Shown here piece after piece: positions 10,450-59,600 of a DNA stretch of 64,000 bases. The DNA lies in assembly GCA_008632985.1 (NCBI GenBank), contig QPGO01000036.1:62001-126000 (forward strand), written 5' to 3'. The DNA is from Psammoneis japonica. Taxonomy: Eukaryota. The first letter of the stretch is position 1. The number at the start of each line of letters is the position of its first letter. Below the pieces are notes generated by a model. It was not told the DNA's origin. It ran no database searches and saw only the letters and a program-made list of their open reading frames with translations. The position numbers and the translations under genes are program-made.

Positions 10450-10494
<45 letters not shown>

Positions 10495-38300: not shown

Positions 38301-40539
38301 TGCGGGACAGTGCAGACAGAGTTTGTGCCCACCAAATGATGGCGCACATTCCAGAGTCAAAGAGCAAGGACAAAGAAGAAGACTCTGGTGCAGCACCCTT
38401 GTTCAAACTGGAGCAAGGCATTGCTGAGTTGTCTGCAGGGCTTGTGTCTGCCAAGAAAGCCTCGCTCAAACTGGAGCAAGGCATTGCTGAGTTGTCCACA
38501 GGGCTTGTGTGTGCCAAGAAAGCCAACACAAACAAGAAAGTCCCAGCTGGAGCAAAGGACATCCTTGCCACTGCCAAAGATGGGTGCACCACGCAACTGT
38601 TTGAAGAAAGCATGAATCTCCCAGAGCCAAAGCCAGAGGTGAAGGATGTCTTGTGCATGTTTCTGTGAGTCAACTCATGGGCAAATGCCACAGACAAGCA
38701 ACTTCACTTGCTGGAATGCATGCTTGCTGCCATTTCCATCCCACAGCAGGGGCATCACAGTTGGGGGCAGCTTGCGCAGACAACAAGGAGACAGGACCAA
38801 GACGTGAACAAGCAAGGTGGGTTAATCAAGGGACCTCCATTTTTTTTTTGGTGCTTCTTGTGTGGGAAAAGGCAGCACTGGCAGATGAGAATGCTGCAGC
38901 CCAGTTTCATAATTGAAGAGGCCTCCCCATCACAACAAGGTGGAGCAAGGGTGTGCTGAACCTTTTGCACGCAGCTTCAATCACAAAAAATGGTGCAGGA
39001 GCTCTTGTGATGGTGTGGCATCTCTTGTTCTCTGGCATCAAAGTCAGTGAATGCAATCAGCAGGCTTCTTGCATGTCAGATGTGAGCAGCAGGTCTTGCA
39101 TGGTGCTGCCCAGTCAGAGTGCAACATCCATGCACAGCACAAAGTGGGTCACCTCTCTGTTGAGATTGTGCAGTGGTGCAGAGGCTAGAAGATGCGGTGT
39201 TGACAACAAGATGCTCAATGCGGTGATGCCAAATTTGTGGGCAGATTGTCAATCACACTTGCTGCTGCACTGCAGTTGGCACTCTCATCTTTTTGGTTCC
39301 AGCAAAAAACACAAACAAAGCAAGATGTGTGTGAAAAGATTCCAGCATGGCTGCCGTAAACTGAAAAGCCCTTCACACGCAAGGTGACAATCTGACTTTA
39401 CATTTTGGGGAGACTGCAGAACAATGTTCTACATCAATGTTTGCAGCAGAGCACTCTGCCGTCACCAAGAAGATGCCAAATCTGGCATCAACAATTGTGT
39501 GTCCCAGGCCAAACATGAGCAACAATGAAGAGAAAGAATGTTCTAAGAGAGGGGAGCTGTGGCAGCTCCTCTCGTGCTTTCACCATTTGCACGTCAGCTG
39601 GGCAATTTGTTGCATTGGTGTGGACAGAGAGAAAGTGGCATCTGCGTCATGGAAGGGGCAAGCAAAATGCATGACAGGTGCACTGCCAATCTTTTGGGAT
39701 GGGCTGTGCTCCTCCAAAACCAATTTGTTCAATTGAGTGACATCTGCCATCAGTGTTTGAGTGGGGGCCTGGGTCTGTTTGAGCGGGCTTGGCTCCTTGT
39801 TGCAGCCACAAGGTCAAAAGTGTCAGGGGCATGATGTCCAGCTGCAAGGTTCCAAATGCTGGTTTTGCCACGACAATGATGATTTCTTTCTTCAAGAGCA
39901 AAAATGCAGCCCTGCAGTGACTGAAGTGTCTCTTGCATGGTCAACAAGCATGTGCTTGTGTGTCTGATGCAGGTCCCAACAATGGGGGCTCATCCAATTC
40001 ACCCGACATCTTTCAAGAAAATGTGCCAAGGCTGTTTGAAGACTTGTTGTTTGCATGTGCATGCCCAGATGATCTTCTGGCAGCCACTGAAAGTGCTTCT
40101 GAAGACCACCACTCAGAGAAGCTGGCAGCCATGCTGCAGCTTGCAAGCAATGCTGGACTCAAGGTCAATGGAGGAAAAAGTGCACTTTTGAAAAATGCAG
40201 CTGGGGTGCCAGAGCCACACAGTCAATCAGGATGGGACACACTTCATGGGCACAATGAGCTGCAGTTGTGACAATGACCAAGACATTCTGAAATGTTGGA
40301 CCACCCACCAGACAACTCAGCACAGGCAGGACTTCAAAATGGAGGCAGATGTGTGTCAAGGACAAAGCACTTGAAGCCAAAAAAGTGTGTTGTCAGACAA
40401 CTTCTCATTGGCAACTTCAGGTTTCAACAAAGCTGATGCCTCCAAATGTCAACTCAGAGCAGCAACATCACAGGACAACAAACCTGTCATTGCACCTTGT
40501 TGCAGCAGAAAGCTTGACAGTTGTTTGCAGTTAAACTGC

Positions 40540-40576
<37 letters not shown>

Positions 40577-43500
40577 ACAACAACAACAACAACAACAACA
40601 ACAGAGAAAGAACTGCTTGCCACTGTGGAGATGTTGAAAGAATTTCAAACAACATCCTTTGGTCAGCACACAACTGCACCTGTTGATCACAAAATTCTTG
40701 CATGGAAAGTGCTCAACAACTCCAAATTTGTGCACTTTTGCTTGATGTGCAAAGAGTGCAGCTCCAAAGAATTGCAGCACAGCATCATGTTGTGCCACAA
40801 CCCCCTGGTTTGCAGATGCCCCCAACTGTCTGGCACTCAAAGTTTGAAGTTTGAGTGTGGTCTGCTGACAGTGCTGGAGATGCCATGTCTGCTGCATGAA
40901 GTTTTTGCACTGGAGACTGCAATGCCACCAGCAAGCTCCAAGCAAACACACAAAGAACAACAGAAGGACTGGCGCCTGCTGCTGAACATGTTGTGTGTTC
41001 CAGTGTGCACTCCATCCATGTGTGCCAGAGACATGATTGAGAAAACACCTGAGTGTGAGCTGCATTGCAAGTGGCTGCACCATCATGAAAAGGCATGCAC
41101 AGAAGCATCTGCTGCCTGGCACTTCCACTGGCTGGCCCAGCATGAGGTCTGCACCCAACATGTGCCAAACATGTGCTGCACAAGAAGATGAAAGACTGGA
41201 GGACACAGTGTGGAAGAAGCTGTCAGAAAAAGCATCTGAGATGATCCTGTGGGAGACCTCACATGTGTGGATGAAAAGCAGGCCCTTGGAAGCTCAGGCT
41301 CAGTGGGTTGACTGTGTGTGCCAAAGACTGACTTTGGCTGGAGCCTGGGCCACATGATTGAGTGTTCCAACCAAAACTGACCCAGCAGCTTGGCAGCCAT
41401 TTCCAGATCTAGCTTGTTCTTTTCAACTGCATGTTCCACATCAAAATGTGCTGTGAACATCAAAATCTTTTCAATGTGGCTGTGTGATTCTCCATGTGGA
41501 ATTGCATGATGTGTCTCTTGCAAAAGTTGCCACATGGCAGCAGCATGTGGTTCTTTCTGACAACTTCTTTCAACTTTGCAGTTGCAGAAGCAGCCCCAGA
41601 ATCAACTGTGGGAAGTGGGCATGACATGCGTTGTGCAGAAAGTGGCAAATTGTTGTGCACTTCTTGCCAAAATGGGCCTGTTGCATTCAAAGGATTTTGA
41701 CAGCCAATGAAGCACCACCAGAGGAGGAGAGAAAGCCGCTGGCAGAAGTGGCGGTGGTGAGCACTGAAGAAACAACCACTCATGTCATTGTCGTGGATCA
41801 AGGAAACTGCGGCATGACATGTGCTGCAGCACACGTCACAGTGTCCTTGCTCTTTTTGTGCACACAAAACAGCTCTCAAATGGCTTTTTTTACATCGGCA
41901 AATGGATTTGTCACCGTGCTGCCAGCACCCTTCATGCTGGTTGACCTTGAGCCTTGTGAAGCACCTTCTGAGGAATCTCTGACTGCTGAAGAAGCGCCGC
42001 CAGTGGAGGAGAGAAAGCTGCCAGCAGAAATGGCAGTGGTGAGTGCTGTGGAAACAGCTCCTTGCATGATTGTCATGGAGCAAGGATGCTGCGGCATGAG
42101 GTGTGCTCCAGCACATGTCACAGCACCCTTGCTCTTTTGGTGTGTGCAAGACAGCTCAATCAAATGGGCTTCTTTCTGCTTTGTGCTCCTCAATGCAGCC
42201 GCCAACCACAGTCATGACCGGCGTTGTGGTTTTCAAATTTAGCAGAGGGGGGAAACATGGGGCTGGTGCGCCGACTGCAGCTACGAAAAAATGCGGGGAG
42301 ACTTTGAAGGAGCTCCAAAAGCGCTGTGTCCTGGGTTGCACTCACGCTGTTTTCACTCTTTTGAAACAAGAAAATGAAAAATTGAAAAAGAAGGAGTTGG
42401 AGTGGAAAGTTGCAATTGGTGCTGATGATTGTTGGACCGCATTGTGCTCAGCTGCAAAGGGTTTGGCAACAGAAGAGATGCTCAAGGCACTGCAAACAAA
42501 AGAGAGGAGAGCCAATCCCATGTCCAAGTTTGAACTGGTGGAAGCACACATGGTGGGGGGAGATGATGTTGTGTGTGACAGTGGCTGGTGTGGAGCGGGT
42601 GGGGAAAAATGGGGAAACAGTGCTTCAGTGCATGTCGCACAGTCAAACAATGTCAACAGTTCCAGCACGTGCACCATGCTGTGTTCTGATGACACATGTT
42701 GTTGCAGGATGTCTGTCAACTGTTGTGCCAGGTGCACCAAACTGCATTTCATCTGTTGCCCATTGTGGCAAGTGTGACAAACTCCACTCCAATCTGTTGT
42801 GGTGCGTTGAAAATTGAAGTGCCTCTTGCCAGCTGCCACAACAAGCACTTGCCTCCACCGCCTCTTGCACTCTGAGAACAGGCGCCAGTCAATGCAACTC
42901 ATTTTCCTTCTCAAGAGAGGCCACTGAAGGGCAATGCTTGGAACCGGGGACCTGACAACAATGACAAAATGAGCGAGCCATTGCAGGAGTGACACTGTCA
43001 AGAGCATCAAGGTGGTGCTCAACCCACCTTGTGCTCCCATGTTGCTCAAAGTGTTTTTTGCAGCAACCAAACATCATTTCAATGGGATTCAAGTCAGGGC
43101 AGCATGGGGCAGTGAAGATAAAAGCAGCTCTCTTTTCTTCAATGATGTCCATGATGCGCTGTGAGAGGTGAGTTGATGCATTGTCAAGCACAACAATGGA
43201 CCTTGGCTCTCCCTCCTCTTCAAAGTTGTCGGTGCAAGCAGCCAGTTTCTCTTCAAACTAAAGCTCAAATTGCTCCTGATCAACTTCTCCTGTGAGTGGG
43301 TTGTTCTTTTTATCTCTTGCATTGCCCCCAAGGAACAATGTCACAGGCCTCCTTTGCAAATCCATCAATGTCACAAGCCACAAGCAATGAATGCTGAGCC
43401 TGTTTGTTGATCTCAAAGGATGTCAATCAAACAGGAGTTGTGACTCATTGAGACCACCAGCGCCACCATCTTGATGAGCTTCAATCTTTGTGAGACTCAT

Positions 43501-43702
43501 CCAAGCACAGTGGCATTTCAGGTCAATGCACTGCAGCCTTCAATGCTTGGAGATGTGATTCCCTTTCTTTCTTGTCTGTTTCCATGGCCTTGTTTGTCAC
43601 AACTTGAAGGGAGCATCCCACTTCCTTTCCAAGTTCCTCATGTGTCTGGGCTGGGCTCCATTTCTTGTGAGCAACCTGGCCCAGCACTTGGGTCACTCGC
43701 TC
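32382..43702 (+). repeat. Segmental duplication, copy B; lacks the 1026-1459 insertion and the 8108-9866 segment of copy A
   Basis: Direct sequence match. Empty site ggaccaacctctt at ~33312-33324. Junction tcaacaagca-TGTGCT-tgtgtgtc at ~39941-39964 joins copy A positions 8107 and 9867 through a 6-bp microhomology. Confidence 0.96.
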
Positions 43703-44435
43703 ATGTTTGGACAAAGGCCAGCAGGCTCTTGATCAACAATGTTCCTTGGGACAAAGGCACCCCACTGAGTCCACAAATGTTGCTTGTGTCCAGTGCAAGA
43801 TCTGGTCATCCACTCATGAGTTTGGGCTGGAGCCTTGCCACAAAAAAGACAGCATCAAAATGTCGTTGACATCTTGAAGAATCACATGGGCACCCACTGG
43901 CAGATGGAGATCACTCACTTGCTGACATGGGTTTGAGTGCTGAGTTTTGGCACTGGCTCCAACATGGACAACATCTTTGCCAAGGCCAACAAGAACAAAC
44001 AAAATGGTTGCCTGCCAAAAACCTTGGTGACTGCGCCAGTGTGGAGTGGGGCCAATCTACATGGAAAAGCAGTCCATTGGGGTCACTCTTTTGTTTGGCC
44101 AATGATGAGAAAGAAGAAATCCATGCTCAGAAGGTCTCTGAGCATCATTTTCAGCCCATCATTGCTTCAACAATGCAAAGTGCACAATGTTGTTCAAGAC
44201 ACAAAAGGTGGTTGTCAGACAGTGGGCAACATTGGGGAAAAGAGGCAATTTTTGCCAACTCTCATTGTCAGCGTGTGTGTTGTTCACTTTTTTGCATCAC
44301 AGCCTTGTCAAGCATTCAAAGACATTTGCAAAACACCCCTGCATGTCTCTGGGCATGGCTCAGCTGCTGAGAAATGAGATGCAGACTGTTGCAGTGGCAA
44401 AAAATGCAGTTGTGAACAAAAAAGAATCTTTTGCA

Positions 44436-44439
<4 letters not shown>

Positions 44440-44482
<43 letters not shown>

Positions 44483-44666
44483 NNNNNNNNNNNNNNNNNN
44501 NNNNNNNNNNNNNNNNNNNNNNNNNNNNNNNNNNNNNNNNNNNNNNNNNNNNNNNNNNNNNNNNNNNNNNNNNNNNNNNNNNNNNNNNNNNNNNNNNNNN
44601 NNNNNNNNNNNNNNNNNNNNNNNNNNNNNNNNNNNNNNNNNNNNNNNNNNNNNNNNNNNNNNNNNN

Positions 44667-44717
<51 letters not shown>
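44440..44717 (+). repeat. (TG)n microsatellite spanning an assembly gap (N at 44483-44666)
   Basis: Read directly from the sequence. Confidence 0.98.
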
Positions 44718-44718
<1 letters not shown>

Positions 44719-45279
44719 ACTTGGAACTTTTTTGTGGAATGCCAACATGACTCTGCACAGCGCACATCACTCTCCATCATGAGTCCATGTGTCAACCACA
44801 CCATGCACACTTTTCATGCCCCAGATTTCCTTGCATTGACTGTCTTGCAGAAGCAAGAAAGGTGATGCACAAGGGCTGCATTCAGGTGGTTTGTTGCAGC
44901 GCCGTTGCTTGTTTTTTCCACTCATGATGCTCTTGCGTGCTTTCCTTCTGACGGAAGCACCTTGGTGCTTCAACCAATGCTGTTGGACCTTGCATGTGTC
45001 ATGTCTGCACAACAAGTGGTGTCTGGATCAACAGAACACAACTTGACTTTCTTGATTTGCACACAAATCTCCATCCAAAGGACTCAAACTCTGACCGCAA
45101 TGTCAAAATTGCTCATGAAGAAGCTCACTTCATGTGAAACATTTGCTTGCATTCATGTTTTTGCCCCAACTCAAGCAAGACCAAGCCAACTCAAATGTGC
45201 AGTCAAACAAACAATGACCCATTGAGCACAAAAACTGGCAAGGCACCTCATTTGGAGTTCAAGACATGCTGCTCAATCC

Positions 45280-46183
45280 ACAAAAATGTGGTGGTTCAGA
45301 GCCAAGGAGCATTGATGGTGGAAGACTTGCTTCATGTCAAGCAGGTGAATGATGTTGTTGCATGCTGCGTGCAACACAGAAAACAGGATCACATTCTTAG
45401 ATGCCCCAACAATGAAGCTTGGCATCAAAAATTTCTGCATGGCCTCCGCAAGTGCTGTGACAAGCTTGATGCAATGCCTCCATTGCGCAGCCTCCTTTTG
45501 TCTTCCATTGAAGCATGGTTCCAAATTGGGATGAGATGCACTGCAGACATTGTCCCCATGCTTCATTCGCTGTGGCAAGCACAGACTGAAATCAGATGTT
45601 GTCAGTTTTTCAATGGCAGTTTCTCCACACTGTTGAATGCCTTTCAAGAAATGCACCTCAGTGAGTCAGGCCCACTGGAGCAGTGTTGAAAAGAAAGCCA
45701 ACCTCTTCTGGTTTGGGTGGTTCAGACAAGTGCTCCCATTTGGAAATCATGATGGGGGCTGTGAGAAAAACACAATGAGGAAGTGCATGGACATGATGCT
45801 GACTCCAGGAAGTCATCTCAGTGCATGCAGGCTGAGGCTGAACTCACAGCTGTTTGCAACAAAAGACAGGAGTGTCTTGCCAAGGACAGAGAAGTGTTGC
45901 CACCAGATGCCATTGAAACTCACATGCCCCACTTTGCTTCCAGGATCCTCAATTGGATTGCCATGGCAAAACCATGCCCAAAGAACAGCATCAAGAAGGC
46001 AAAGCACTCTGCGCTTTGTGGCACTCACTCTGTTGCTGGCCATTTCGGTGGGGTGTCAATTCCCAGTGACACCCATCCTGGCTGATCCCCGACAACTTCT
46101 GCTGCACTCAACTGTGCACTGGATGTGTGGGTCAGCCTGCACTGGCCCAGCTGGCAAAGAAGTGATGGCACTTAAAATTTAGA
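45280..46183 (+). mobile_element. Older, fully decayed relative of the LINE-like element at 24380-25590
   Basis: DHILRCPNNEAWHQKFLHGLRKCCDKLDAMP and MHGHDADSRKSSQ match the first copy. Similar 3' end (cacttaaaatttag). Both TA and CG depleted. Confidence 0.8.
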
Positions 46184-47959
46184 TTTGTTTTTCTTTGTGC
46201 TCCTCAGTGCAGCTGCCAGTCATGGTCCCAATGCCTTGGCCAAAAGATTTGTCACCATGCCACCAGTGCCCTCCATGCTGGTTGACATTGACTTCTTTCT
46301 AAAGAAGCACCTCCCAAGGAATCTTGGTCGACCACCTGTGGAAGAGAGAAAGCTGCCAGCAGCAGCAAAAGTGGCAGCAGTCAGCACCAAAGAATCAACC
46401 GTGTGCTGTCTTGGTGTGTGTCCAAAAGCTCTCACTTGACTTTTTTGCTTTGTGCCCCTCAATGCAGCTGCCAACCATGATCCCCGCAATGGCTGCCGGC
46501 CAAACCTTTTGCTGCTGCACTGCCAAATTTCTCCACACTGGTTGACAATGTCAACTGCACTTCACTTGATGTTGCCCCTCCAGCACCCATTGGTGCATCA
46601 GCAGGAAAAAGAGTGCTGCACCTGCAACAAAAGCTCCTGAAGTCTGCCAAGAGATCAGAGGAGCAAGAAAGGCATTTTGACAGATTGGAAGCTGCACATC
46701 AACTCCTTGCAGAGACAAACAATGAGAGCAGTTTTGTGACTCAAAGATCTCAGGCCAAGGCCACAGAGATTTTCAATTGTTGCTCAAGATTTCCAGGAGA
46801 CAAGCAAAGATTTGTGTTGGACCAATGGCAGCTTGCAAAGAGAGTTGTGCAACAATCAGAAGCACAAAATGGACAACATGAGAACAGCAATGGTCTCACT
46901 GCTCAATTGATGATGAGCTTGAAACCAGCAGGGTTTTCTCTGCAATGAGGCAACTGGGGAGACAGCGCTGCCACCATTAGAAGCAGATTCAAATCTCCAT
47001 GTTTTGACCAATGGGGGAAGAACAACATCGTTGAAGCACTCCCAAGAAGCGCTGCACAAATCATGACTCTTGTTGCATCATGCTGGGTCAAGAGTCAGGC
47101 ATCTTGGAAAGACTTGATGCCTGCACTCACTCCCTTCAGCTAGAACATGAAACTTTGGATGGAAAGTTTGGAACCACACCAATTGACTTTTGTGGCAGCA
47201 AAGGCTCAGGAAGCATGAGCAACTTTGTCATTGAAAACGTCATTGATGCTGACCCCACTCTTGCCAGGTGCTCAGCAATCTGTTGGGAAGAAAGAGAAGC
47301 CATCCCTCAATTGATCATCCCTGATTGTTTCATTTGGGTGGGGCCATCTGACCCATGCAATTTCATCCTTGAGTTCCATTTTGCCAACTTGAACCACCGT
47401 CAACTCCACATTCTTTGGACAGCGGCAAATTTGGAAGCCTCATTTTTCACAAGCACAGGTTCTTAGACCATGAGGAGCAGTCTTTCTTTGAGAATGTGTG
47501 GACAATGGGAGGCTCCTTGAGAGTTTCACATTTGTCCATTGGCACTCCAGCTTTGCTGTCCTCAAACACACTGTCAAGAGTCGAGCCGTCAAAGCCCTCT
47601 TCCTGAGTGATGCTGTCCTTCAAGAAGTGGATCTAGGTGCACTTGCTGAACTGGCTGCCACCACCCATTTTTGCAATTGCACCACTGAAGACTGCAAAAG
47701 GTTTGGCAAGAAGTGAGCTGCCCACAAAGCTGCAAGAGTGTGGGATTGCTGTCAGCACCAGTGAGAGTCAATGGCGCTTGAGATCTCTGAACCTTTGTGC
47801 TGGTTTTTTGTGCAGGCAGTGTCACAAATTCTTTCTAAACAACTTTGGCAGGGGTGGGTCAAGCAGATTTTCTTAATTTTTTCCAGCTTTGGCTGGAGCA
47901 TGCATCATTGACTGAAAAAAAAAAACACTCTCACAAATGCTCGTGTAAGACCCTCTCAG

Positions 47960-48200
47960 TGGGTTGCAGATTGCAGAGTGTTTGAAGCTTGTGCCAGAGG
48001 CATCACACAAGAGCACTTGGAGTCAGAGGATGCTCTTGAACTTGAGCATGTTGGAAGCAATGCACAGTGCTTTTTGGAGGACAAGATCCTTGTTGGGCAT
48101 GCACTCAAGAAAGATTTGCATGTGCTTGACATCACTCACCCATGGTGTGTGACCTTCGTGACACCAGCAAGTGCAAGTGGCTCATGTGGCATGGTTTGAA
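47960..48200 (+). pseudogene. DEDDh RNA exonuclease (REX4-like) fragment
   Basis: GITQEHLES...LEDKILVGHALKKDLHVLDITHPW matches the ExoII motif ILVGHALxNDLxVLxIxHP. Confidence 0.7.
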
Positions 48201-48619
48201 AACAGCATTTTGTGGCCATGCAAGTTAAAGGAGCATTGCCAAGTGCCCCAGAAGAAGCATTGTGCCACTCGTTTGCTGCTTCTGATGATGTCGACACCAG
48301 CAAGACATCATTTCAACCACTCGGAACCTCAGATCTGCCAACATTGACAAAAAAAAAACAAAGCAGCCACCCAAACAGAAATGGATCACTTGCTCTTCAC
48401 TGAGAGAGCTGGTCCACACCATTCACAAGGTCACAAGGTTGTGCAGCCAGAGGATTGTGTGGCTGAGCTCAGAGCTCAGCTGCTCAACGATGTCTCATCT
48501 GCTTTTGGTGAGCAAGCTGAGTCTGCAGTTTTGGTGGACATTGAGCAAAAACTTCCAAAAAAAGCCAGTGCCAAAGAGGAAGAAAAGACAAGGACAAGAA
48601 CAATGTGATGACCAGGACA

Positions 48620-49451
48620 TCACCATGGGTTTTGTCCAAAGTTTGCCACTTTTGTGGAAATCAGTTGCCTGGATGATTGGAGAAGAGCCTTTCTCAAACA
48701 TTGCGGCAATGAATGAGAAGAATTTTGACTCACTCATGTTGCATGTGAATGCAACAATCAGAAACAATCTAGAGTGGATGTCCTTGGGGTCAGTTTGGGA
48801 ATTTGTTGCCCTCTTTGACAGCCTTTGCATGGCACTGGCAAAGTCAGAAGCCCTCAACCAATGGGCTGCTCACATGGTGCATGTGCAATGCTGGACAACT
48901 GGAGCAGCAAATGGGCCCAGGAATCATGGAGGCAGAGCTGTCAAGTCACCAAAGGCTGTTGTCACTGTCGGCATAAAAGACTGTCGTCAGACTGTTGCAA
49001 ACTCTGTCAGGCCAGGTGATGCGGCACTTGAAGTGGGCTGTCATTTTGGTGCCACCACGGCACTGCTGCACAAAGCCGCTGCTGCAGGAGCTTCAGGTGG
49101 CCACGCCGTTGGAGTGGACGTGAGTCCCAAAATCATTGGTGGAGCCAAACACAAAAACCCAGAGGTTTTCTTTGCTGTCGGAGATGCGTGGAAGACGGCA
49201 AAGCCATTTAGAATTCAAAGAGAGTTCCTTGAAACAAAGTTTTCGTCTGAGCCAAATGATCGAGTTGGGTTTGATGTCGTCTGTGTTGACGTTGGTGGCT
49301 TGTCGGGAGGTGATGGGCTTTTGGAAGCCCTCTCGCTAATATGTTGGCATTGATGAATGCGCTAGAACCAAGATGTCTCGTGATTAAGAGTCTCTGTATG
49401 AGACAGTTGTCGTCAAGTCTAATCCCACACTGGAGGAAAACAAGAGATTAA
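48620..49451 (+). pseudogene. Class I SAM-dependent methyltransferase-domain gene, eroded from the 5' side
   Basis: LEVGCHFGATT (motif I), VGVDVS, GDAW, FDVVCVDVGGLSG. Frameshift near 49340, then ALEPRCLVIKSLC...stop at 49449-49451. The 5' boundary is uncertain. Confidence 0.7.
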
Positions 49452-49670
49452 TGATGGCGACAAAGAAAAACATGAGATAACCTTTGCGTCGTCAGAGATC
49501 TCAAGTTTTGCGAATACAGCTCCTCATCTGAACGAAGTACAGCCTTTCGTGTCCCTTTACGGAATGCCGCAGAGGATTTCATTTGTTAACTGAAGCAACA
49601 AAATTTCGGCGTAGTGTTCAGAAGAAACGAAATAAGTCTTGCGATAGTAACAGCGTTACGTTGATTCATA

Positions 49671-50881
49671 CTACCAATTAAGCCAGGGTGTCTGCGAATC
49701 ATCAACCGGATAACCCCAAATACCCATGGCTTCCTTCATGTCGGCACAAGGATGATCCCTTGTGAGTTCGTCTTCAGAAACAAATTTGCCAGTAACGTCC
49801 AAATTGTTGTAAAAATGCACCCTAATATTTCCGTAGAGCCCCGCAAGAGCGTAAGGATCATTTTCTGCAAACTCAACGGCATCGGTCCTGTTTGGCGCAT
49901 TATACAGAACGAGACTGCCGACAGCCAAACTCGAAGGATCGTCTTTGAACTCGGTAGGAAGATGTATCGGCCCGGCAGCAATCACGCGTTCGGAGCGAAT
50001 CAAGTACTCCAAATGAGAGTCCCACAAGTCCTCTCTTACTTGTTCAGCTTCGCTCATTTCTTCAGGGGAATTGTCCAAGGCCAGCAAGAGTACGGGTGTA
50101 CCGGTCCGTCCATCATCTTGTCGAAGAGTATAATCGCGAATGTGACGCCACCTGTAAAGCGGTACGTTGGATATGTCGCCGCCAGTCAGCGATTGAATAA
50201 TTGGCTCCCGAGACATGAGCTCATACACATACTCCAATTTCGTCGACTCCATGCACATTGCATGGCCAATGATCCGTTGTAAGTCAACCGAGAGACTTGA
50301 GTTTCAACAATTGAGGTTCGAGCGTGAGAAAACCGATTGAAAGAGCGAATCATAGCCAAAGAAACTTGAAGCTTCACTTACATTGGATAACTCCAGAGGA
50401 CATCGACCATGCTATCATAGTTAAATGTCTCATTATAAAGATTTGCCTTGCGGCAAAACAAGACGTGTTCTTCAGTAAGCTCCTGACGATCGTAAAACAG
50501 TTTCAGTACATCTCGATCTTTGGTATCCAGCGCCTTGTCCCAACAAAACGCCACAAACCGGTTTCCGCTGTTCTTGGACATGGGTACCGGTTTCAATTCG
50601 ATTGTTGGAGCATCCAGACCCTCCTTGTAGCCGCGGCCAGAACGAATGTCCTTGTTGTCGTCGTCGTCTGTATCGTAATCCGATTTCTTTGAAGAATACT
50701 CCGACCCATCGTTCACAAACGAAGACATATGCAGCCGCGATGATTCACTGACAAGAGCATGTTCATTTCTATCTTGAAGGAATGGAAGCTTACCAAGAGA
50801 GTGTGCTGGTAAAAAGGCTGCATCGCCGGTCGAAAGACCCATCATACCACAGACAAAGAAAGCACAAGCCAGCTGCATCAT
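49671..50881 (-). CDS. Probable plastid-targeted YCII-related domain protein; intron 50296-50381
   Basis: Signal peptide followed by GDAAF (ASAF-like cleavage motif). The GTAAGT...AAG intron joins YPI|LSVDLQRIIGH in frame. HLEYL...VIAAGP...GSLVL...FAENDPY..AGLY is YCII-like. Confidence 0.8.
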
Positions 50882-51377
50882 GTTGTTCTTTATCGCAGAG
50901 GAAAACAAATAATTTTGATTTTTGTCGCAATTCACAAGGACCCAAGAACACTGAACTACCGTAAATGCGACAAAGAGCAGACAAAGAGGCGAAATCACTC
51001 AGAAAAAGAAGGTTACCTATTATTCCAACAACAACAGCATCGCGAATGCGATGATGGGTAGTATGATGGGTGATGCGATGGGTGATGGCTGGTCGACGCA
51101 CGCTTCGCGCGCTGCATTTTTTGTGGAAGGAGACGCACAGACGACAAGAAGCATTCGCGCGCCCGGCCGGCCGTATACGGTACGTGCGCTTTGTCGCGCG
51201 CCGGCTTGAATGCATGATGGCTATGATGAAGATATGGTGATGAATTGAGAATGAACAAAAACAACCCGGCCGTCACCGCTCATCTTACTTCTATGAATGG
51301 AAGGAGGGAATGCCTAGACTATAGGCGGTGTGCGGTGTCCATCCATTCACCCCTACCGGTAATATTTTGGCACACGC

Positions 51378-52954
51378 ATGTCAACACACGGCAAGAAATG
51401 TGACATAGCTGAGGAGGACGAAGGAGAAACGTTTGATCTGTTCAGAGAGACGAAGTTGTGGTTTCACATTGCTCTTCCGACCGTGGCGGTTCAATTCAAT
51501 GTTTATTTTATATTTCCACAGACGGCATCTACTGTCGGACGTCACTTGGGTGTCGAAGCCCTTGCCAGCTTTTCCTTGGCTTCCTTGACTGGAAACCTAC
51601 TGGTTCTCTCAATTATTATGGGCGTTCTGACTGCAGCTGATACTCTAATGCCACGAGCTTTTGGGAATGGCCAATACTCTGAAGTGGGACGATTGGCTGT
51701 GCGAGGATTCGTGGCGTCCATACTTGTCTGATCGTTCCCTTGTTTCTCTTGACGTTCAGTATGGGTTCAATTTTTGAAAGTCTTGGGCAAGATCCGTTCG
51801 TCTCAATCGCCGCATCGTTGTGGCTACGAATTTATGTTGTCGGCGTTGGCTTTGTTTTGGTTTTCAGAATTATGCAGAGATTCCTAGCTTGTCAGCATAT
51901 TGTCTTTCCAATGGTACTAGCCAGTGGTTTAGCTTGCTTCTTGATACACCCTTTCCTGCTTTTGTGGTTGATTCCCAGTTTGGGTTTCATGGGTTCTGCT
52001 GTCGCTATCGTTGCGACACAGGTGGCGTGCATCGTGCTTGTGTTGACAATTCTCAAGCTTCGCCCAGTCTATAATGCAGCTACTTGGCCAGGGCTCTCTA
52101 TGTCTTTCATTCTAGAGTCCATACAGCCAGAAGGTATGCTACAATTCTTGAGGCTGAGTTTGGGAGGAGTCTTGTCCTTCACGGTATGTAATGCAAAAGG
52201 TCTGGCGTTCGTGGTATTAACGTTTCAAGACGACATTTTGTGTCATTTTCACGTATTTGTATCCTTTTCGGTATCAGGAATGGTGGTTCTGGGAAACAAA
52301 TGCTTCATCGCCGGGCACATAGGTGTTATCCCACTCTGCATTCATACTGTTGCATACAACTTGATTCCGGTCACATTCATGTTTCCGCTGGGGATGAGCA
52401 TTGGATTGAGCGTTAGAATGGGTCACGTTATCGGGAATAACGTTGCAGCTGCAAAGAAACTGGCAATTTTATGCATGAGCTTTACGCTTGTGGTTGCATT
52501 TATCGTTTCATTAACCTTGTATCGCATGCAACACATTGTTGTTGGTCTCTTCACACACGACCAAAAGGTAGTCGAGGGGTGCCGTGGTATCTGGGTCAAG
52601 TTTTGCATCTACATTGTATTACTCTATATGTATGGTATCAATAGTGGCATAATGCGTGCATTGGGACTGCAGTGGCGCATGGGAGGGATTGTTCTGGTGG
52701 TGCTGTGGGGTTTGACGTTACCCACGTTGATTCATGTAGGGGTTCGGAAAGGAGGCGGCATTGACGGAGTGTGGTCGATATTGCCTTGCGCGTATCTCAT
52801 CTTGAATGTTCTCTTGACCTTGACCTACACCAGGATCGACTGGAATGCCATTAGTCACGAAATTCGACAGCGAGCCAATCAGAAAGATCAAGTCGAAATT
52901 GGGGAAGGCTCCGAGCACACACCCCTCAACAGAACACGGCGACTGAATGTTTAG
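51378..52954 (+). CDS. MATE family efflux transporter; intron 52184-52277; two apparent 1-nt frameshifts (~51725, ~52300)
   Basis: VGRHLGVEALASFSLA, DTLMPRAFG, QRFLACQ, LGFMGSAVA, EWWFWE (after splicing), FMFPLGMSIGLSVRMG, GIMRALG; many hydrophobic helices. Confidence 0.85.
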
Positions 52955-52993
52955 TTAAAAACAATAACAACAACACAGAATGATCGCGTCGTC

Positions 52994-54379
52994 TTAATCG
53001 ACAAAACAAGAATTGAAACCACTGCGTAGCTGCTCTTGTTGTAGGTGCCTTCCAATAAACACGACCTTGCATGAACGTTCAACAGCATCCCCCGTGTAAC
53101 CTTGGTTGTCCCATCTCAATTCATCGCCTGCTGGATGTATCTCCCACAAATCGAAAACAGCCTGAACAATAAACCGTCGTGGATCCAAACCATTCTCGTC
53201 GGCAAGAACTTCATTTCCTTCATCGACACTGTCGTCACTTTCACACGTCACGGAAAGTATGCCCTTGATTCGAAAGATTTGCATGTCGCTGTCGCTAGTG
53301 GGTGGTTCCTCGGCCATCTCAACACGGTCCTCCTGCATACGAGCCTTTAGCACACTATTGGCTTCATCCTGATTTGGCCATAGCAGTGAGGCTAACCAGG
53401 CATTCATTTTTCGAAGATTTACAGAGCCGGTACGTACAAGTGCAAGTGTCCCGACGGCTTCTGTATGGCGGTGATTTTCCAGGTCATCAATGGTGTGATG
53501 GTGGCTGCATTCTTGACATAACAAGTCCGTACACGAATGATGAGAATTTTCCTTTCTCTCCGAAAGTAGCAAGTCGATTCCCTTTGAATCTCCAGTCCCA
53601 GTAAAGCAGTCTGTATCCAAAATCCACGACAAATCGGGCACCTCAGAATAGGTTGTTGAACGAATCATTGCTGTTGGGTGTATCCTTCTTATCCGTTTCA
53701 ACAAGTGTTGCTCCATATCCGAGTCCACAAGATCGATTTTGTTTAGCAGTATTCGATCGGCGTACGCAATTTGTTGAATAGCCTCTGTTGTTTGTTTCAG
53801 TTGCACGTCAATGTTGAGTGCATCCACCAGCGTCACAACCCCGTGCAACTGCAGTCTCGACTCCAACGCATCATCCAACCAAAACAAACTCGCAATCGGT
53901 CCAGGGTTTGCCATGCCACTGGCTTCAATCAAGATATAATCCAAGTCGCGTCTCTTTTGCAACAAATTTTCGAGCGTGGCAACAAGGGAGTCCTTAACGG
54001 TGCAACAGATACATCCGTTTGGCAATTCAATTAGATCCGACAGCGATTCTTGATTTGCACCGTCGCGAGCAATAATGGACTCGACTGACAGACCCTCACT
54101 GCCGCCTCCGTATTCATTCTCAATCACAGCAATTCTTTTTCCATGTTCGGGCGATCGAAGAATGTATTGGATGAGAGTAGTTTTCCCGCTCCCTAGGAAC
54201 CCAGACAAGATTGTTACTGGAACGGGCGGGAGAGAAACTTCGTCATGACCACGCGGAATCCCGGTGTTTGTTTCCTGTGCATCTGATAACTCGCCTTTAA
54301 TTTTATCGATATTGACAAGCACCGGAACTTCCTCCTCATCGTCGCTGTCAGGTATGCGGTTGTCGTTGTAAGTGTCCAT
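52994..54379 (-). CDS. cobW: COG0523/CobW-family (ZNG1-like) G3E P-loop GTPase, putative metallochaperone
   Basis: VPVTILSGFLGSGKTT, IENEYG, LPNGCICCTV (CxCC), IEASGMANP, LNKID, His-rich linker, RIKG and VFIGR in the C-terminal domain. First ATG at 54379. Confidence 0.93.
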   Translation of the reverse strand: MDTYNDNRIPDSDDEEEVPVLVNIDKIKGELSDAQETNTGIPRGHDEVSLPPVPVTILSGFLGSGKTTLIQYILRSPEHGKRIAVIENEYGGGSEGLSVESIIARDGANQESLSDLIELPNGCICCTVKDSLVATLENLLQKRRDLDYILIEASGMANPGPIASLFWLDDALESRLQLHGVVTLVDALNIDVQLKQTTEAIQQIAYADRILLNKIDLVDSDMEQHLLKRIRRIHPTAMIRSTTYSEVPDLSWILDTDCFTGTGDSKGIDLLLSERKENSHHSCTDLLCQECSHHHTIDDLENHRHTEAVGTLALVRTGSVNLRKMNAWLASLLWPNQDEANSVLKARMQEDRVEMAEEPPTSDSDMQIFRIKGILSVTCESDDSVDEGNEVLADENGLDPRRFIVQAVFDLWEIHPAGDELRWDNQGYTGDAVERSCKVVFIGRHLQQEQLRSGFNSCFVD

Positions 54380-54466
54380 CGTTGTGCATCTCACTCCATC
54401 GTTTGCCTCTCTTTTGTGTTGTGTCCGTCTTCGTCTGGTGGTTCGTGGTGTCAAAACAGAAGAGCA

Positions 54467-54710
54467 ATTAGACCTCGAGGTCTGAGGTCAAAATAAATGA
54501 AAACCATTGGAGGTCTATGGACCTCGAGCTCTGAGGTCCAAATAAAAACCATTGGAGGTCCATAACACCGGTAAGGTTGCATACTACTTTTTTTGAAAAA
54601 TCCATTAGACCTCGAGGTCTGAGGTCCAAATAAAAACCATTGGAGGTCTAATACTTTTTTTCAAAAATCCATTAGTCCTCGAGGTCTGAGGTCCATAAAC
54701 CATTAGAGGT
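54467..54710. repeat. Four-unit repeat array with the palindrome AGACCTCGAGGTCT in the divergent intergenic region
   Basis: Units of (att)agacctcgaggtctgaggtc(c)aaataaaaaccattggaggtc at ~54467, 54519, 54604 and 54671, with small variants. Confidence 0.92.
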
Positions 54711-54762
54711 TAAGTGTTAAAGTCGCCGCAATAACAACAATCGCTTTTTTGCCGCTGCCACC

Positions 54763-55916
54763 ATGGAGACAGTCCCCGAGAAGAGCCGTGCAAGAGCTCA
54801 AATGGTACATGAAGAGACACTCGAGCCCATGCGAGTTTCTCATGCGTACGATGGTCCTTCGCGAAACCTTTACGAGTCCATCATCACTGAACGCAAGCCC
54901 CACCTTTTGCTGGTTCTTGTCGTCGTAGTTCTTGTCGTGGCGCTGCTTCCAACCCGCGAAAGCGACAGCATTTTGTTTCTTCAGTGCCCACCACAAGTTC
55001 CCAAAGCTCCTAACGATGATGGGTATCACATAAATGTTGACTATTTGACAATAGAGGCTGGCGAAGGAAATCTGGTGCTGGGAAGAAACATTACACATTT
55101 TCTGGAGAACAGAACAATGCATTACGATAATTGGGGCCACTCCTACGAAGAAGTCAAGGAGGGAATGTACCATTGGAAGTCAACCATGTATGCCGACAAT
55201 GTCGAAAACGGGGACCGCATATATGAAAGCGCCTGTGGAATCGGTCTCAATCTATACATGACGCTTGAAATCCTTAACGAGGTCAAAGGCATCGATACGC
55301 TCTTTGTCTATGGGAACGATTATCTTCCGCAAAGCACAGCTTTAGCCAATCTGATTTTTGATCAGATGCCACCATTTCATTCGAAAAAGGGTTCATTGTG
55401 CACTGCCGACTCGACAAATCTGGAATTTGTCCCATCCGATACATTTGACGTCGTCTTTACTGGATACATAACGTAAGTTGCTCATTTCTTTTGCTGATCG
55501 GCGAGCCGTGGACCTTTGACTTAACCTCGATTACGTTGTTCAGTCCAATCTATGATCCCATTCAAATAGGAAATGGCACAATAAAAGAGAATTACAGACT
55601 GTATCGGGAAGTATGCGAAGAAACAGATTGGAAGAGCGAAAAACTAAAAGCTTTGTCGCAGGAAGCTCAAGAAGACTTCTACGCTGCTTGGGTGGGCGAA
55701 ATGATTCGTATCGCCAAACCAGGCAAGCCAGTAATTGTAGAGCAAGTCTCAAATCCTTATTGTGACGAATACAGAGATTGGGGTGGTGTTGCGAGAGAGT
55801 GGTGGGAACCGGCGATTCAGAAATATGGTTGGAATGTTGACCCGGATTCAATCGTGATGGAATATGACACGATTTTCTTTAATAGATATCATGTTTTCTT
55901 GCGGAAGAATCCATGA
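54763..55916 (+). CDS. Membrane-anchored SAM-dependent methyltransferase-like protein; intron 55473-55543
   Basis: N-terminal TM helix (LLLVLVVVVLVVALL), IYESACGIG (motif I), YGND, FDVVFTG, EMIRIAKPGKPVIV. The GTAAGT...CAG intron joins the two ORFs in frame. Confidence 0.85.
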
Positions 55917-56421
55917 CGGAGCTCAGTATGAACGATTGATGAAGCGACTGTGTTTCTTCTCTTCGTGTGAGGGTAGCTCGCTCGACATCGCAACCAAAGG
56001 CTCGACATACTCAAACTATTGATGATAGTAATTCTGAAGCTAACTACAGGTTGTCATCTTTAGTGATACTATACTTTGAACTACTCTGCCTACCATCAAT
56101 CTACAACAAATCAAGCATGCAGGTGTGGATAGTTGCCCTACTCTTTCTGCCCTCTAGCTCATTGCGTTGCCTCTTTGGGGTTGAACTTGACAACTCTGTT
56201 TACACCCTGACACCTCTTGAGAGTTGGACTTGGGGCGCCTGTAAAATGGCTAGCCCCAACATTTTGTGCAGAATCGCTCAGGTAGATCTATCATCCTCTG
56301 CCGCTCTGAACTCTGCATTTTCTCTGGCTGCTACGATCAACTCTCAACTCTGGGCTAGTGCAAGATTGACAGATGAGATCTTTCAACCGGGCCTTCCCAA
56401 TTCTGTGCTATGGTATGCTTT

Positions 56422-56666
56422 TGACAGGGATCCCACATGACCCTTTTATATTGGAACCTCATGTTCGAAGATAGCATATATATTCAGTCGGGTTTATGAC
56501 TGAAATTTACTGATCTTTCGGAGTGTTTCAACAACCTGTCGGAATCTATCCGTTCTGACAGCCACATCGATTCTGAGACTAGCTCAGAATCTCTCACAAC
56601 TTCTAGACAAAGCATTATCGCAAGGTACTGTTTCTAGATTAGGCTCTAGCTTACTCTCTCCTGTCA
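56422..56666 (+). repeat. 5' LTR of the copia element (245 bp)
   Basis: Begins TGACAGG and ends CCTGTCA (7-bp inverted termini). The same TGACAGG follows the PPT at 63994. Confidence 0.85.
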
Positions 56667-56676
56667 GTGCACGGAC

Positions 56677-59600
56677 TTGATCACCCAAGACACTCTCAGG
56701 CGAGTGCCCAGCTCTCACCCATTTCCCATCATGGTTGCAACACTTCCGGTTCGGTCCAACACGACCGCTTCTTTCAAGCCGAGTGCTGCTCATGCGTCTC
56801 GCAATGCTTCCTCTCCCAAGCCGTCTTCGCACGCACTTTCTTCGCATGAAGCTTTCACGGTCCACGGATGCTCCGTCGATGACGTCCCCATGGCCGACCC
56901 TCGTGACCGTTGTCACAATGTTGATGCTGGCTCCATTGTTCAGCATGCTGGCATGTACACCGCACGTCGTCGTCGATCTCGTCGCGTGACCCAGGGCGTG
57001 CACCACCCTGCCACCCGTTGCATCAAGCGCGCATCTGCGCCACGCTCCAAGCCGCCTTCCAAGCCCTCGCAGCAGGCCCCCAGGCGCAACAAGGTCTCCA
57101 CCCGTCGCTCTCAACGTGCTGTCAACCGCACGCTCTCTAGCTCTACCGACACTGTGGATTTTGAGCGCCGTGTTTGCTCATCTGTTCGTGGCCTTCGCAA
57201 CGGCAAACCCGCCACTTTGCCCAGGACCCTTCATGCTGTTTCGCAGCCGACTCGCAAGCGCACCAAGACCGCTCGCCGTCGCACCAAACGTGCTCTTCGT
57301 CGCTCTGTTGCTTCGGTCAAAGGCACCCCGGCTCCTGCTCTGCCTGCACCTGACGAGCTCCGTCTCTCTCGTGTCAAAGCTGACGTCCGCGCCGCTCTCA
57401 GCGAACGTCTTGCTCAGGCCCAGGCCCGAGTTGATCATCTCCAACTCGAGACTGAAAAGATCTGCTCCAACTTTCACATTGTCAAGCACTCTCGTGCTCG
57501 ACTTGACACGTTGTTGGAACAATCCACTCACGATGAATCCAAGTTTTTCGACCCCGAGCACAATCTCTGTGACCGCGCGATCCGCGACCAATTGACAGAT
57601 GTCGACTCATCCCTTGACATTTTACATGTCGATTTGGACACTTTGCATGACCGCATTCCGAAACCTTCCGCACGCGATAACCCCGCGCCCTCTGCTCACT
57701 TTTCTGGGCCGCGCCCCCGAAAACGTCAAACCAAATCACGCTCGCGGCAATCACTCCGGATGACTCCCAACCAGGAACACCATGCACTACGATCCTACCG
57801 TCTCCGCCATGGCATGTCCCGCTCCGAACCCTTTTATCATCCAGACGCCGACTCCTTCTTTCGGCCTGAAACAAGAAAGTGTCAAGACAGTGGCCCACAG
57901 CAGTCTCCGCACCCCTCTTCCGATCACTTCATCTACGTCACCGTTGAAACTGTACACTCCGACGATGCGGACGATGCATCAGCTCAAGGGGCGTCTCAAC
58001 CCATTGCTGACGACCCGCCACCCACTGTCACTGCACCACTGGGGTCCCCTGAGGAATTCCCCCCGCTTTCATCTCCAACGGATCAAGCCACTCCTGCTCT
58101 CTCCCATGTCGACCCATCATCAACCTCCGCGACTCCGCTTTTTGATGTTGTCACTCCCACGTTGAATGAAATGGATGAAGCACTTGACAAGGCTCTTGCC
58201 TCTCCTGCTCACACTCCTGCAGTCAACTCACCTTCTCCAGCTTCGCCCGACACCTCTGACGCGCCTGATCTGTCCGTCGACCAAGACATCAACGTCCAGG
58301 TTCGTCTCGTCACCTTCGAGGCTCTCTTCGACACCCAACAAGCTCTCGCACCGTTTTTCCATCGTGAGAATGAACGTGCCGCTGAGCTTTGCGACACTGT
58401 CGATTCGGCGAAAACGTCTTTCGAGCGCCTCCTTCGTCGACACCCTGCTTGCGAAGCAAGCACTCTCGCACTTTGTCGTTTTCAGGACATGATGCGCGAA
58501 GCCGAGTCCCTTTACTTGGAACTCATGTTCCGCCTTGCCCTCACCCCACGACCACACCCCGCTTCCCCGTCCGCTCACCACTCATCAGTTGACGACACTG
58601 TTTTCTCTCATGTCGCAAGCGAGCGCACCTCGGAATCCTTGTCAAATTCACTGATGAAGCATGCATCTCACACAAATTTGCGCACTCTGAAGCACCATCA
58701 GAATCCGCACACACGACGACAAAAATTTCATGCATTCTTGAATGACTTGCGTGGGACCTTCGCATCATTTCCGGAATTCAATGGTGCACTCGATGATTTT
58801 CCCTCTGTCCCTCTCCGCCCACTTCCAGACCATGCCGACAGCACCCTCTGTGCCCTCCTCTGGACGCATGTGGACGCAACGTGCCAATCTGACATTTCTG
58901 ACCTTGGATCTCGTTCCGGCAAACTTGCTCTCGAAGAACTCCAGCTGCGCTGTGCGCCCATCACTCAGGAACACAGCAACCACTGTTCAAACGACTACCT
59001 CCAAGTCTTTCGCAACTCGGATGAGTCCGCCAGCAGCTTCATCCAACGGTTTGAACGAAAACTCCGGAGCCACAAGAACGCCGGCCTTCCCGTCAAGACT
59101 GATGCGGATGTCAGTGCCCATTTTCTTGGCCAAATGGGCAGCCATCCCCGCTGTGATGCTGCCATCAAGCAATTCGAATCCGAATTTCGCACTGCTGCTC
59201 GTCTCTCCTCTGCCACCGCTCCTCGATTTAAGGACATCCGGCAAACGTTTTATGATGTCGACGAGCAGCATCACAACCAACAGCATCGTGATCGGCTCTC
59301 GCATGGCTCCCGCTCCCGCTCTCACAACAACCATGCTCACCTTGCCACCGTCAAACGCGCTCCTCGGAATGCACAACGACAGCAACAGCAGCACCGTTGC
59401 CCAAACCAACCTAACGCCACCGAGATCTGCGACTGCTGTGGCAAACGCAACCACAACGCCTCCGAATGTCGCTCTCGGCTCCGTGATCTGAAGAAGGGCA
59501 CACCCAAGGATCAACCTGCTGCCAAACCTCCTCGCGACCTCAGCGAAGTCACGTGCCATAACTGCAGAAAAAAGGGGCACCTTCGTCCCGACTGTCCCGA

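Follow-up and report, generated by a model that had tools for sequence, protein, structure and literature searches.

Step-like, nested fronts of CG and TA loss across a methyltransferase pseudogene of Psammoneis japonica

A stretch of 64,000 nucleotides of Psammoneis japonica (assembly GCA_008632985.1, contig QPGO01000036.1, positions 62,001 to 126,000 of the forward strand), hereafter the window, contains a methyltransferase gene copy, here termed copy A, which lies across the border between DNA almost devoid of the dinucleotides CG and TA and DNA of normal composition. The locus raises the question whether both dinucleotides return at the same position and what sets the border. They do not return together: CG is dense again from 48969 onward, TA only from 49337 onward, and in the shoulder between these positions CG is kept and TA is nearly lost. 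The features concerned are the following (R, purine; Y, pyrimidine; W, A or T).

32483..48968, depleted core in which both CG and TA are low: 118 CG and 46 TA per 16486 bases, TG and CA at about 1.9 times the expected level
48307..49451, plus strand, copy A, pseudogene of a class I S-adenosylmethionine (SAM)-dependent methyltransferase (diatom-type), ending with TAA at 49449-49451
48606..48611, plus strand, two in-frame TGA at the place of Arg-Arg (M-R-R-P-G) of the homologues
48969..49336 (368 bases), shoulder in the 3' half of the pseudogene: 17 CG, 2 TA
49337..49343, TA step, with the first kept TA of the sensitive R-T-A-Y class at 49340
49337..56652, normal gene island with intact genes: 376 CG, 318 TA

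CG and TA return at two separate steps

A single CG (48704) and a single TA (48770) occur in 48600-48968, in agreement with an earlier, sequence-only reading according to which both are largely missing before about 48950. CG is then found at 48969, 48985, 49022, 49058, 49077, 49104, 49107, and so forth, whereas the only TAs between 48969 and 49336 are those at 48974 and 49209, followed beyond the shoulder by TAs at 49337, 49340, 49363, 49385, 49397, 49420, 49449, and 49478. In a two-state segmentation with rates set from the window itself, the step falls at 48968/48969 for CG and at 49336/49337 for TA. The order proposed earlier, with CG returning first and TA only at about 49330, is thus retained, but not the proposed gradient. 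Within at most 150 bases past each front the density is already normal (7 CG, 8 TA), while before it is almost nil, and both fronts are sharp steps.

The 2 TAs of the shoulder are opposed to 16.0 expected from the adjacent normal 7.3 kb (P(<=2) = 1.6e-5), and its 17 CGs to 2.6 expected at the core rate (P(>=17) = 3.3e-9). Intergenic DNA does not inflate this TA expectation, as the coding DNA of the neighbouring genes contains 0.032-0.044 TA per base. The orthologous coding segment was evaluated in 57 metagenome loci (59 loci, two of which were dropped due to matches of fewer than 80 residues) and contains 3.3-31.8 TA per 368 bases; none of the 57 segments is as TA-poor as the shoulder, and the two lowest have a G+C of 0.69-0.74. 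A shoulder with CG kept and TA nearly lost is therefore confirmed.

Copy A has 75 homologues with E-values down to 4e-65, lengths of 330-420 amino acids, and a top identity of 54%. It carries both the family homology and the SAM-binding signature, with the invariant motif E-V-G-C-H-x-G, whereas the Pfam match to Methyltransf_25 (21.1 bits) stays under the cut-off of 27. The sequence-only reading regarded it as a host gene in unique sequence. Its reading frames show it to be a pseudogene: an intact frame is missing, and a profile of 14 homologues, matched to copy A in three reading frames (frame 0 with 267 bits, frame 2 in two pieces with 72 and 44 bits), reveals that the frame changes near 48424-48432, again near 48702-48712, and a third time at 49336-49343. 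Reversal of the TGA at 48606 gives CGA, and since the consensus at this position is R in 93% of the homologues, the first of the two stops is explained by CGA to TGA.

Mutations were reconstructed at columns where the window departs from a residue shared by 60% or more of the 14 homologues. A change was counted if a single reversed transition recreates CG or TA and restores the consensus or, less strictly, a residue found in three or more of these homologues. Reversals of the CG type are confined to 48418-48871, except for a single one at 48973, while those of the TA type occur before the shoulder in 48633-48958 and continue within it. There, eight TA-type changes (48982 Y>C, 48994 I>V, 49024 V>A, 49051 T>A, 49054, 49102 Y>H, 49204 L>P, and 49282 Y>C) are opposed to one of the CG type (48973). 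Seven of the eight reversals restore the consensus; that at 49054 is synonymous and thus weak. TA was hence converted to TG or CA where CG is intact, as had been supposed from the peptides DCRQT and DVVCVD, taken for altered Tyr sites. The first site has Tyr in 14 of 14 homologues and the second Tyr in 11 and Phe in 3; Cys occurs in none, and the objection that orthologues might share it does not apply.

Two context-specific transition processes in nested domains

About 45 of the 64 kb are depleted, with CG at 0.13 and TA at 0.04 of expectation according to the base counts of the window, TG and CA raised to 1.92 and 1.82, and a constant G+C of about 0.47; for normal DNA in the window the values are 1.02 for CG and 0.57 for TA. 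Direction and context of the changes were read from a depleted relative and from the surviving dinucleotides.

13.6-16.5 kb, 28.4-31.2 kb, and 49.3-56.7 kb, normal islands according to the segmentation
17760..18625, depleted relative of the normal DNA at 29604-30497, with 66.6% identity

At the 53 CGs of the normal copy, the depleted relative has 20 CA and 17 TG, with 1 CG kept, and at the 48 TAs it has 22 CA and 17 TG, with none kept. The loss of CG is therefore symmetric, as in methylation-type CpG decay, and the loss of TA affects both strands alike (TA>TG 17, TA>CA 22). Among the TAs surviving in core DNA, only 1 of 129 is of the type R-T-A-Y (33% in normal DNA) and 83 of 129 are of the type Y-T-A-R (17% in normal DNA). 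Because R-T-A-Y is nearly gone and Y-T-A-R survives, the target is R-T-A, corresponding to T-A-Y on the other strand. Surviving CGs include TCGA in 4 of 262 cases (1.5% versus 9.6% in normal DNA), and GCGC and CCGC are enriched. Per strand, C>T in the transposon pair amounts to 58% for TCG, 47% for ACG, 33% for CCG, and 32% for GCG, that is, with a TCG preference, and to a background level of about 10% outside CG. The target of the CG process is accordingly W-C-G, with TCG foremost.

The two processes can be told apart where CG is kept. TA survival by context, together with CG density, is as follows.

Normal DNA: R-T-A-Y 100%, mixed 100%, Y-T-A-R 100%; 55 CG per kb
CG-kept zones outside the copia-type element: R-T-A-Y 3%, mixed 14%, Y-T-A-R 36%; 61 CG per kb
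Core: R-T-A-Y 0.2%, mixed 5%, Y-T-A-R 27%; 6.4 CG per kb

The CG-kept zones have thus received 55-78% of the TA exposure of the core without any loss of CG. A CG process running at a fixed ratio would have removed at least two thirds of the CGs there, yet none is gone, and the processes are hence switched separately, with respect either to space or to onset. The transitions thus stem from two context-specific processes that can be separated, and in the core, in which 6% of the TAs and 14% of the CGs survive, the removal of TA is the more complete one.

The order observed at copy A recurs at the other borders.

16527..16690, second shoulder: 6 CG, 0 TA (P for TA 8e-4)
28255..28384, third shoulder: 10 CG, 1 TA (P for TA 0.023)
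31160..31378, fourth shoulder: 15 CG, 0 TA (P for TA 7e-5)
32320..32482, CG-kept, TA-lost islet: 12 CG, 1 TA; its sister 1-115 still has the TAs
24418..25549, block of 1.1 kb with CG kept and TA lost: 71 CG, 10 TA
56653..64000, plus strand, Ty1/copia-type element cut by the window end: 527 CG (normal), 36 TA (0.10 of expectation)
1026..1459, plus strand, insertion of 434 bases of the long terminal repeat (LTR) type, bounded by TG...CA and flanked by a caac target duplication at 1022-1025 and 1460-1463
1026-1133 and 1352-1459, LTRs of this insertion, 108 bases each
1-13596 and 32382-43702, direct duplication of about 12 kb, already depleted, with 98.4-98.5% identity

At every soft border of the window the loss of TA exceeds the loss of CG in reach, as the sequence-only reading had stated for the methyltransferase gene. 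Compared to its sister, the islet at 32320-32482 shows four TA>TG/CA differences and one CG>CA difference. The single segment of reverse type (116-200, 85 bases) contains only two TAs, which belong to the resistant Y-T-A-R class and are retained by the sister copy as well. A strand polarity linking TA>TG versus TA>CA to the direction in which the loss spreads was rejected, as it is inconsistent between the shoulders.

At the corresponding place of the sister copy (about 33316, 98.5% identity) the LTR-type insertion is missing. Because two LTRs must be identical at insertion, the direction of change is known here without an outgroup. The pair differs at 9 of 108 positions, 8 of which are TA>TG/CA changes, all located in the right LTR at 1412-1454. 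In this LTR all 8 distal TAs are lost, both earlier TAs are kept, and all 4 CGs (1388, 1416, 1419, and 1422) are kept. TA loss thus reaches 48 bases into a young insertion and elsewhere 130-370 bases into CG-normal DNA, whether single-copy or repeated genome-wide. The insertion core (1134-1351) contains a tRNA-like T-arm motif, while ARAGORN called no tRNA in the window; the insertion may represent a terminal-repeat retroelement of miniature size whose core derives from a tRNA.

The sister copies were compared over two long blocks, in which 111 of 126 substitutions are transitions, and 10 sites read TG in one copy and CA in the other. Due to these 10 sites both copies must have been mutated independently after the duplication, and since the LTR insertion, which postdates the duplication, is affected as well, mutation was still active after recent events. 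The one-sided differences at CG (36) and TA (11) between the sisters were rejected as a further proof of ongoing mutation, since back-mutation from the 2372 TG/CA sites could match them. Copy 1 of the duplication has the extra segments 1026-1459 and 8108-9860. Sister transitions (1460-13596 versus 33316-43702) are enriched in R-Y-T, with 2.1% of AYT and 1.4% of GYT sites changed versus 0.1-0.6% in most contexts, and GCT/GTT differences were also found between copy A and the second copy described below. RCT/RTT may thus be a third, weaker target.

For the copia-type element, a frame of 2003 codons is followed by a frame change into a frame of 528 codons (56650-63956). The long frame encodes 11 Tyr, 104 His, and 67 Cys and stays open because TA loss alone makes no stop codon. 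Pol_BBD and RVT_2 were matched in Pfam, the reverse transcriptase with only 54.8 bits, and an integrase core was not detected by Pfam at an E-value of 0.001. It is a dead element that still resembles a giant gene. DNA of this kind is almost without TAA and TAG stops and Tyr codons, and gene finders will call long false open reading frames in it, while homology searches will miss its dead genes and transposons.

A second gene copy and the nature of the border

Contigs of one sample, from the runs X1 (which contains 96% of the sampled words) and X2, were aligned to 44700-57500 at 80% likeness. An X1 contig covers 45495-49186 with 2 differences in 3692 bases and a depth of 66.9; it leads unbroken from the core over the CG step and through the first 218 bases of the shoulder. 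As this k-mer contig reproduces the window, the depletion is not a consensus artefact. A second X1 contig over 48307-49186 has 117 differences and 17 gaps relative to the window and a depth of 63.5. Single-copy flanks have a depth of 56-62 and haplotype-specific pieces of about 30. Since each form occurs at single-copy depth, copy A and this second form, termed copy B, are paralogues rather than alleles, and the earlier assumption of unique sequence does not hold. In X2, copy B is represented by a contig of 1885 bases with 146 differences over 48307-49513 and 9 in 340 bases over 49570-49909, separated by a 56-base indel (49514-49569) located where a spacer divides the methyltransferase gene from the YCII gene; the indel is present in X1 and X2. 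The possibility that B skips an intron there was rejected, given the ends AT..CG and the presence of the skip in X1 too. The summed depth is about 120-166 up to about 50677 and 58 beyond. From these contigs and depths, the segment shared by A and B spans about 2.4 kb, of which only the left 1030 bases of A are mutated and B is intact.

Among the 38 differences listed between A and B (40 of 547 were listed, two of which belong to another contig), 22 have CG or TA in B and TG or CA in the window, with 0 in the reverse direction; the remainder are 9 other transitions and 7 transversions. Past the TA front, the homology continues for 570 bases or more with about 97% identity and without mutation of this kind, and the divergence between B and the right, unmutated part of A amounts to 2.6% in addition to the 56-base indel. 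This background change exceeds the 1 in 108 of the LTR pair, which argues for a long-standing front at 49337 and not for a fresh conversion. None of the three TA-loss borders examined (A/B, copia, and LTR insertion) ends at a repeat boundary; the fronts fall inside the A/B segment, inside copia repeat DNA, and inside the LTR insertion, and thus the border is not set by homology. A paralogue whose homology ends at the front, which would have fitted a pure homology effect, had been envisaged by the sequence-only reading; the paralogue exists, and its homology runs from 48307 to at least 49909 through both fronts.

We consider it fairly probable that two transition processes have run near completion in silent DNA, with step edges and nested domains, at a border which homology does not set and which most likely is one of chromatin. 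About 45 kb of silent DNA, rich in repeats and pseudogenes, would have been mutated in place. Process 1 converts W-C-G to W-T-G, probably by deamination of 5-methylcytosine. Process 2 converts R-T-A to R-C-A (T-A-Y to T-G-Y), and its chemistry could be adenine deamination after T, or a modification by which thymine at R-T-A pairs with G and is read as C. The domain of TA loss always encloses that of CG loss, with an overhang of about 50 to 370 bases that may be spatial or temporal in origin. With the edge located inside the dead duplicate A, and an intact copy B elsewhere in the genome, the border would most likely correspond to that between a silent chromatin domain and a block of intact genes, where a domain of chromatin or of base modification ends. 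The silent state would then govern the TA process, while the CG process would be bound to a core that is narrower and presumably CG-methylated. The earlier proposal that the locus orders the two processes in space stands as far as the nesting is concerned.

Several observations weigh against this explanation. Only a few bases separate the TA step from the 2-base frame change relative to the homologues (49336-49343), and no contig among those listed bridges 49186-49643, which keeps a junction of recombination, conversion, or assembly alive as an explanation. None of the listed A/B differences stems from the shoulder, and its mutations rest on the orthologue consensus. X1, of unrecorded library type, is possibly the source of the assembly itself. 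Beyond 49337 two further sites may have been changed, 49404 (R>Q through CG>CA) and 49431 (H in the window, with Y in 8 and F in 6 homologues, as judged by eye), and these hint at a thin tail. Furthermore, a simple model in which everything in the domain is mutated predicts neither the LTR insertion, which is flanked by depleted DNA on both sides and yet unmutated at 1026-1411, nor the about 230 bases at 56422-56652, which are of high copy number (depth of about 700) and TA-rich and precede the TA-poor copia body from 56653. The sharp TA front inside the copia repeated unit is possibly the boundary between LTR and internal region.

A more specific, tentative version is an enzymatic, chromatin-targeted DNA editing defence of this diatom lineage, whose chemistry would be one not known from other genome-defence systems. 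A strict T-A deaminase or thymine modifier would turn TA into TG on both strands of silenced DNA, alongside a T-C-G activity or as the same enzyme with a preference for a 5' T, within about 1% of background divergence, with sharp borders about 1-2 nucleosomes outside the domain of CG loss and with reading frames left open. We hold this for possible, though not for the expected outcome.

Rather doubtful is a single silencing domain creeping outward, in which TA is lost fast and CG slowly or late, so that the shoulder would be the most recently silenced DNA and the order a temporal one. The copia-type element, of a family with copies at least 80% alike at a summed contig depth of about 700 (58 for single-copy DNA), looks young and has lost TA and no CG; the young LTR insertion shows TA loss alone, and the survival values of the core (6% of TA, 14% of CG) point in the same direction. 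A creeping domain should, however, leave a graded TA loss, and both fronts are steps; the background change of 2.6% plus the indel in the right part of A/B, larger than that of an LTR pair in which 8 of 8 TAs were already lost, indicates a front apparently stationary for long; and the shoulders have taken 55-78% of the TA exposure of the core at zero CG loss.

A mosaic generated by gene conversion, recombination, or assembly, with the fronts as tract ends between patches mutated fully, at TA only, and not at all, is unlikely. Copy B would be available as a donor, the TA front falls on the 2-base frame change, and the fronts are step-like. In addition, about 42% of the 38 listed differences are of a type other than CG/TA, which, scaled to 117 in 880 bases, leaves about 5-6% on the left versus 2.6% on the right. 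Nevertheless, the right part of A is not B (9 differences in 340 bases and the 56-base indel), the form of the window is present as separate contigs, and the X1 contig is continuous across the CG step. The same polarity of the shoulder is moreover found at five other places, one of which lies within an LTR and needs no junction.

Very improbable is a homology-directed mutation of the A/B duplication resembling repeat-induced point mutation (RIP), with the fronts as limits of pairing. It could draw on the fact that the mutated gene is duplicated, on the repeat-rich nature of the depleted blocks, and on the relationship of the diatom DNMT4 to the fungal RIP factor RID, as given in the part of the source consulted (PMC9998398). 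Against it, B keeps CG or TA at 22 of the 38 listed differences and never the reverse, the homology beyond the TA front is unmutated, and the depleted DNA at 46408-47688 has a single-copy depth of 66.9, although heavy mutation could conceal old copies below the 80% limit.

Chance, compositional selection, or a sequencing artefact of modified bases, which heavily modified DNA may cause with some base callers and for which the unrecorded library types leave room, is hardly credible in view of Poisson probabilities of 1.6e-5 to 3e-9, 0 of 57 equally TA-poor orthologous segments, destroyed conserved residues and created stops, mutated and unmutated forms at equal depth in one run, and only 6 flagged among 1228 500-base windows of the orthologue loci, none near the level of our window.

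Related systems and further features of the window

RIP is known as a fungal speciality and proceeds by C>T alone. To our knowledge, no natural system has A:T>G:C at TA as half of a region-limited hypermutation. In the literature searched no paper on joint CG and TA loss or on TA-directed hypermutation was found, though papers beyond the searched full texts may exist, and the same search gave nothing on 5-hydroxymethyluracil or on N6-methyladenine in TA context in diatoms.

Like ascomycete RIP, as described in the sections consulted of PMC2973834, the pattern is near-saturating, restricted to transitions, dinucleotide-specific, and gene-inactivating in silent repeat-rich DNA, with a short-range spill. 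According to the same sections, RIP leakage extends at least 930 bases in Neurospora, with a mutation density proportional to the proximity of the repeat, and is also known from the AvrLm6 region of Leptosphaeria maculans (PMC2973834). Unlike RIP, in which C>T at CpA creates TpA and AT-rich DNA, TA is erased here at a G+C of 0.47, and the second process leads from A:T to G:C. The partner B is untouched with fronts inside the duplicated segment, so that only one of both copies is affected, and the edges are steps without decay with distance. Leakage from the repeat block, as suggested from the sequence, is hence upheld in the sense of a short-range spill with a fixed spatial order, seen at all soft borders and at the LTR end, but it does not enter a single-copy gene. 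The likeness to RIP leakage is a loose one and ends with the spill, since TA is destroyed instead of made, the partner is spared, and the profile is step-like.

Closer to the CG process is the RIP-like TpCpG hypermutation of repeats in Pucciniomycotina (rust and smut fungi), which has in common with the window the C>T at CG, the preference for a 5' T, and the transposon-like DNA; in the consulted parts of that report TA loss is not described, and the hosts are fungi, whereas a stramenopile is concerned here (PMC3318451). In diatoms, transposons are CG-methylated by DNMT5a, while the function of the RID-related DNMT4 is unknown as far as the consulted part of the source goes (PMC9998398).

Decay of 5-methylcytosine at CpG is similar with respect to the symmetric CG>TG/CA changes confined to silent transposon-rich DNA with gene islands spared, and dissimilar in that it covers only half of the pattern. 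Ordinary CpG decay runs about tenfold over background in mammals. The loss of CG in the window is near-complete (0.13 of expectation) in a copy with few other differences to its paralogue and thus appears faster than such decay.

For the TA process, deaminases offer a comparison. TadA, a tRNA deaminase, acts on U-A-C and is the origin of the adenine base editors, and ADAR prefers a 5' U/T; these enzymes act on RNA, and on DNA only when engineered. The conversion of A to G after T with a favoured following pyrimidine corresponds to the T-A-Y context found here, whereas in the window both strands of resident chromosomal DNA are affected equally. Retro-copies edited by ADAR or APOBEC before integration were ruled out, as both strands are changed (17 versus 22) and a resident gene is mutated over part of its length.

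We regard the finding as a form of point mutation linked to repeats or heterochromatin, with TA erasure as the new element. A stramenopile thus shows a hypermutation as thorough and region-limited as RIP, half of which is A:T>G:C at TA. For an approach to the mechanism the two-step front is of most use, as it shows a separate control of the processes, gives their order in space, and excludes homology as the limit. If the domain model is true, the fronts provide exact coordinates at which maps of methylation, base modification, and chromatin should change, and the T-A-Y context points to natural DNA adenine editors as a class worth seeking.

Within the 61 metagenome loci scanned (329 kb), four of the six flagged windows are merely G+C-rich, and two are located in the locus L041. 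L041 and the overlapping L042 are microbial-mat metagenome contigs of another organism with a distant methyltransferase homologue. Patches of 0.5-1 kb (L041 501-1000 and 4501-5500; L042 5001-5500 and 9001-9832) show a mild double depletion, with CG at 0.11-0.17, TA at 0.18-0.33, and TG/CA at 1.5-1.8 of expectation, and are regarded as a lead only. A YCII neighbour is absent beside the methyltransferase orthologue in all 61 loci.

Terminal repeats were looked for around the islands at 13.6-16.7 kb and 28.3-31.4 kb and around the copia start, and none were found. Open frames of the core gave Pfam matches to Methyltransf_16, DUF285 (twice), MutS_V, and RT_RNaseH. The Methyltransf_16 relic corresponds to a lysine methyltransferase, and retroelement pieces are situated inside the core as well. 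Relics of host-type genes, an exonuclease-like piece among them, occur in the depleted block at 33.9-38.0 kb, 40.5-41.2 kb, and 47912-48232. For 47998-48232, an unmutated paralogue is present in the sample (X2 depth 367). A scaffold gap of 184 N is located at 44483-44666 within the depleted block, and for about 44.9-46.1 kb the X1 contigs offer several alternative joins at a depth of about 30-60, which indicates repeated DNA and a perhaps imperfect assembly.

The depth of X2 is very uneven (5 to 367). The listed X2 contigs include form B, and none of them covers 44700-47688 or the window's form of 48307-49186, a gap that is given no weight as to expression. One X2 contig lacks a GT...AG intron of 71 bases (55473-55543) and looks transcript-derived, although the kind of the run is not on record.

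The gene island beyond the TA front contains the neighbour of copy A and further comprises MatE-like, CobW-like, and other genes.

49671-50303, minus strand, YCII-domain gene in the island 49337..56652

The closest relatives of the genes in the window are diatom proteins, e.g., an Entomoneis transcriptome entry and a Thalassiosira protein.

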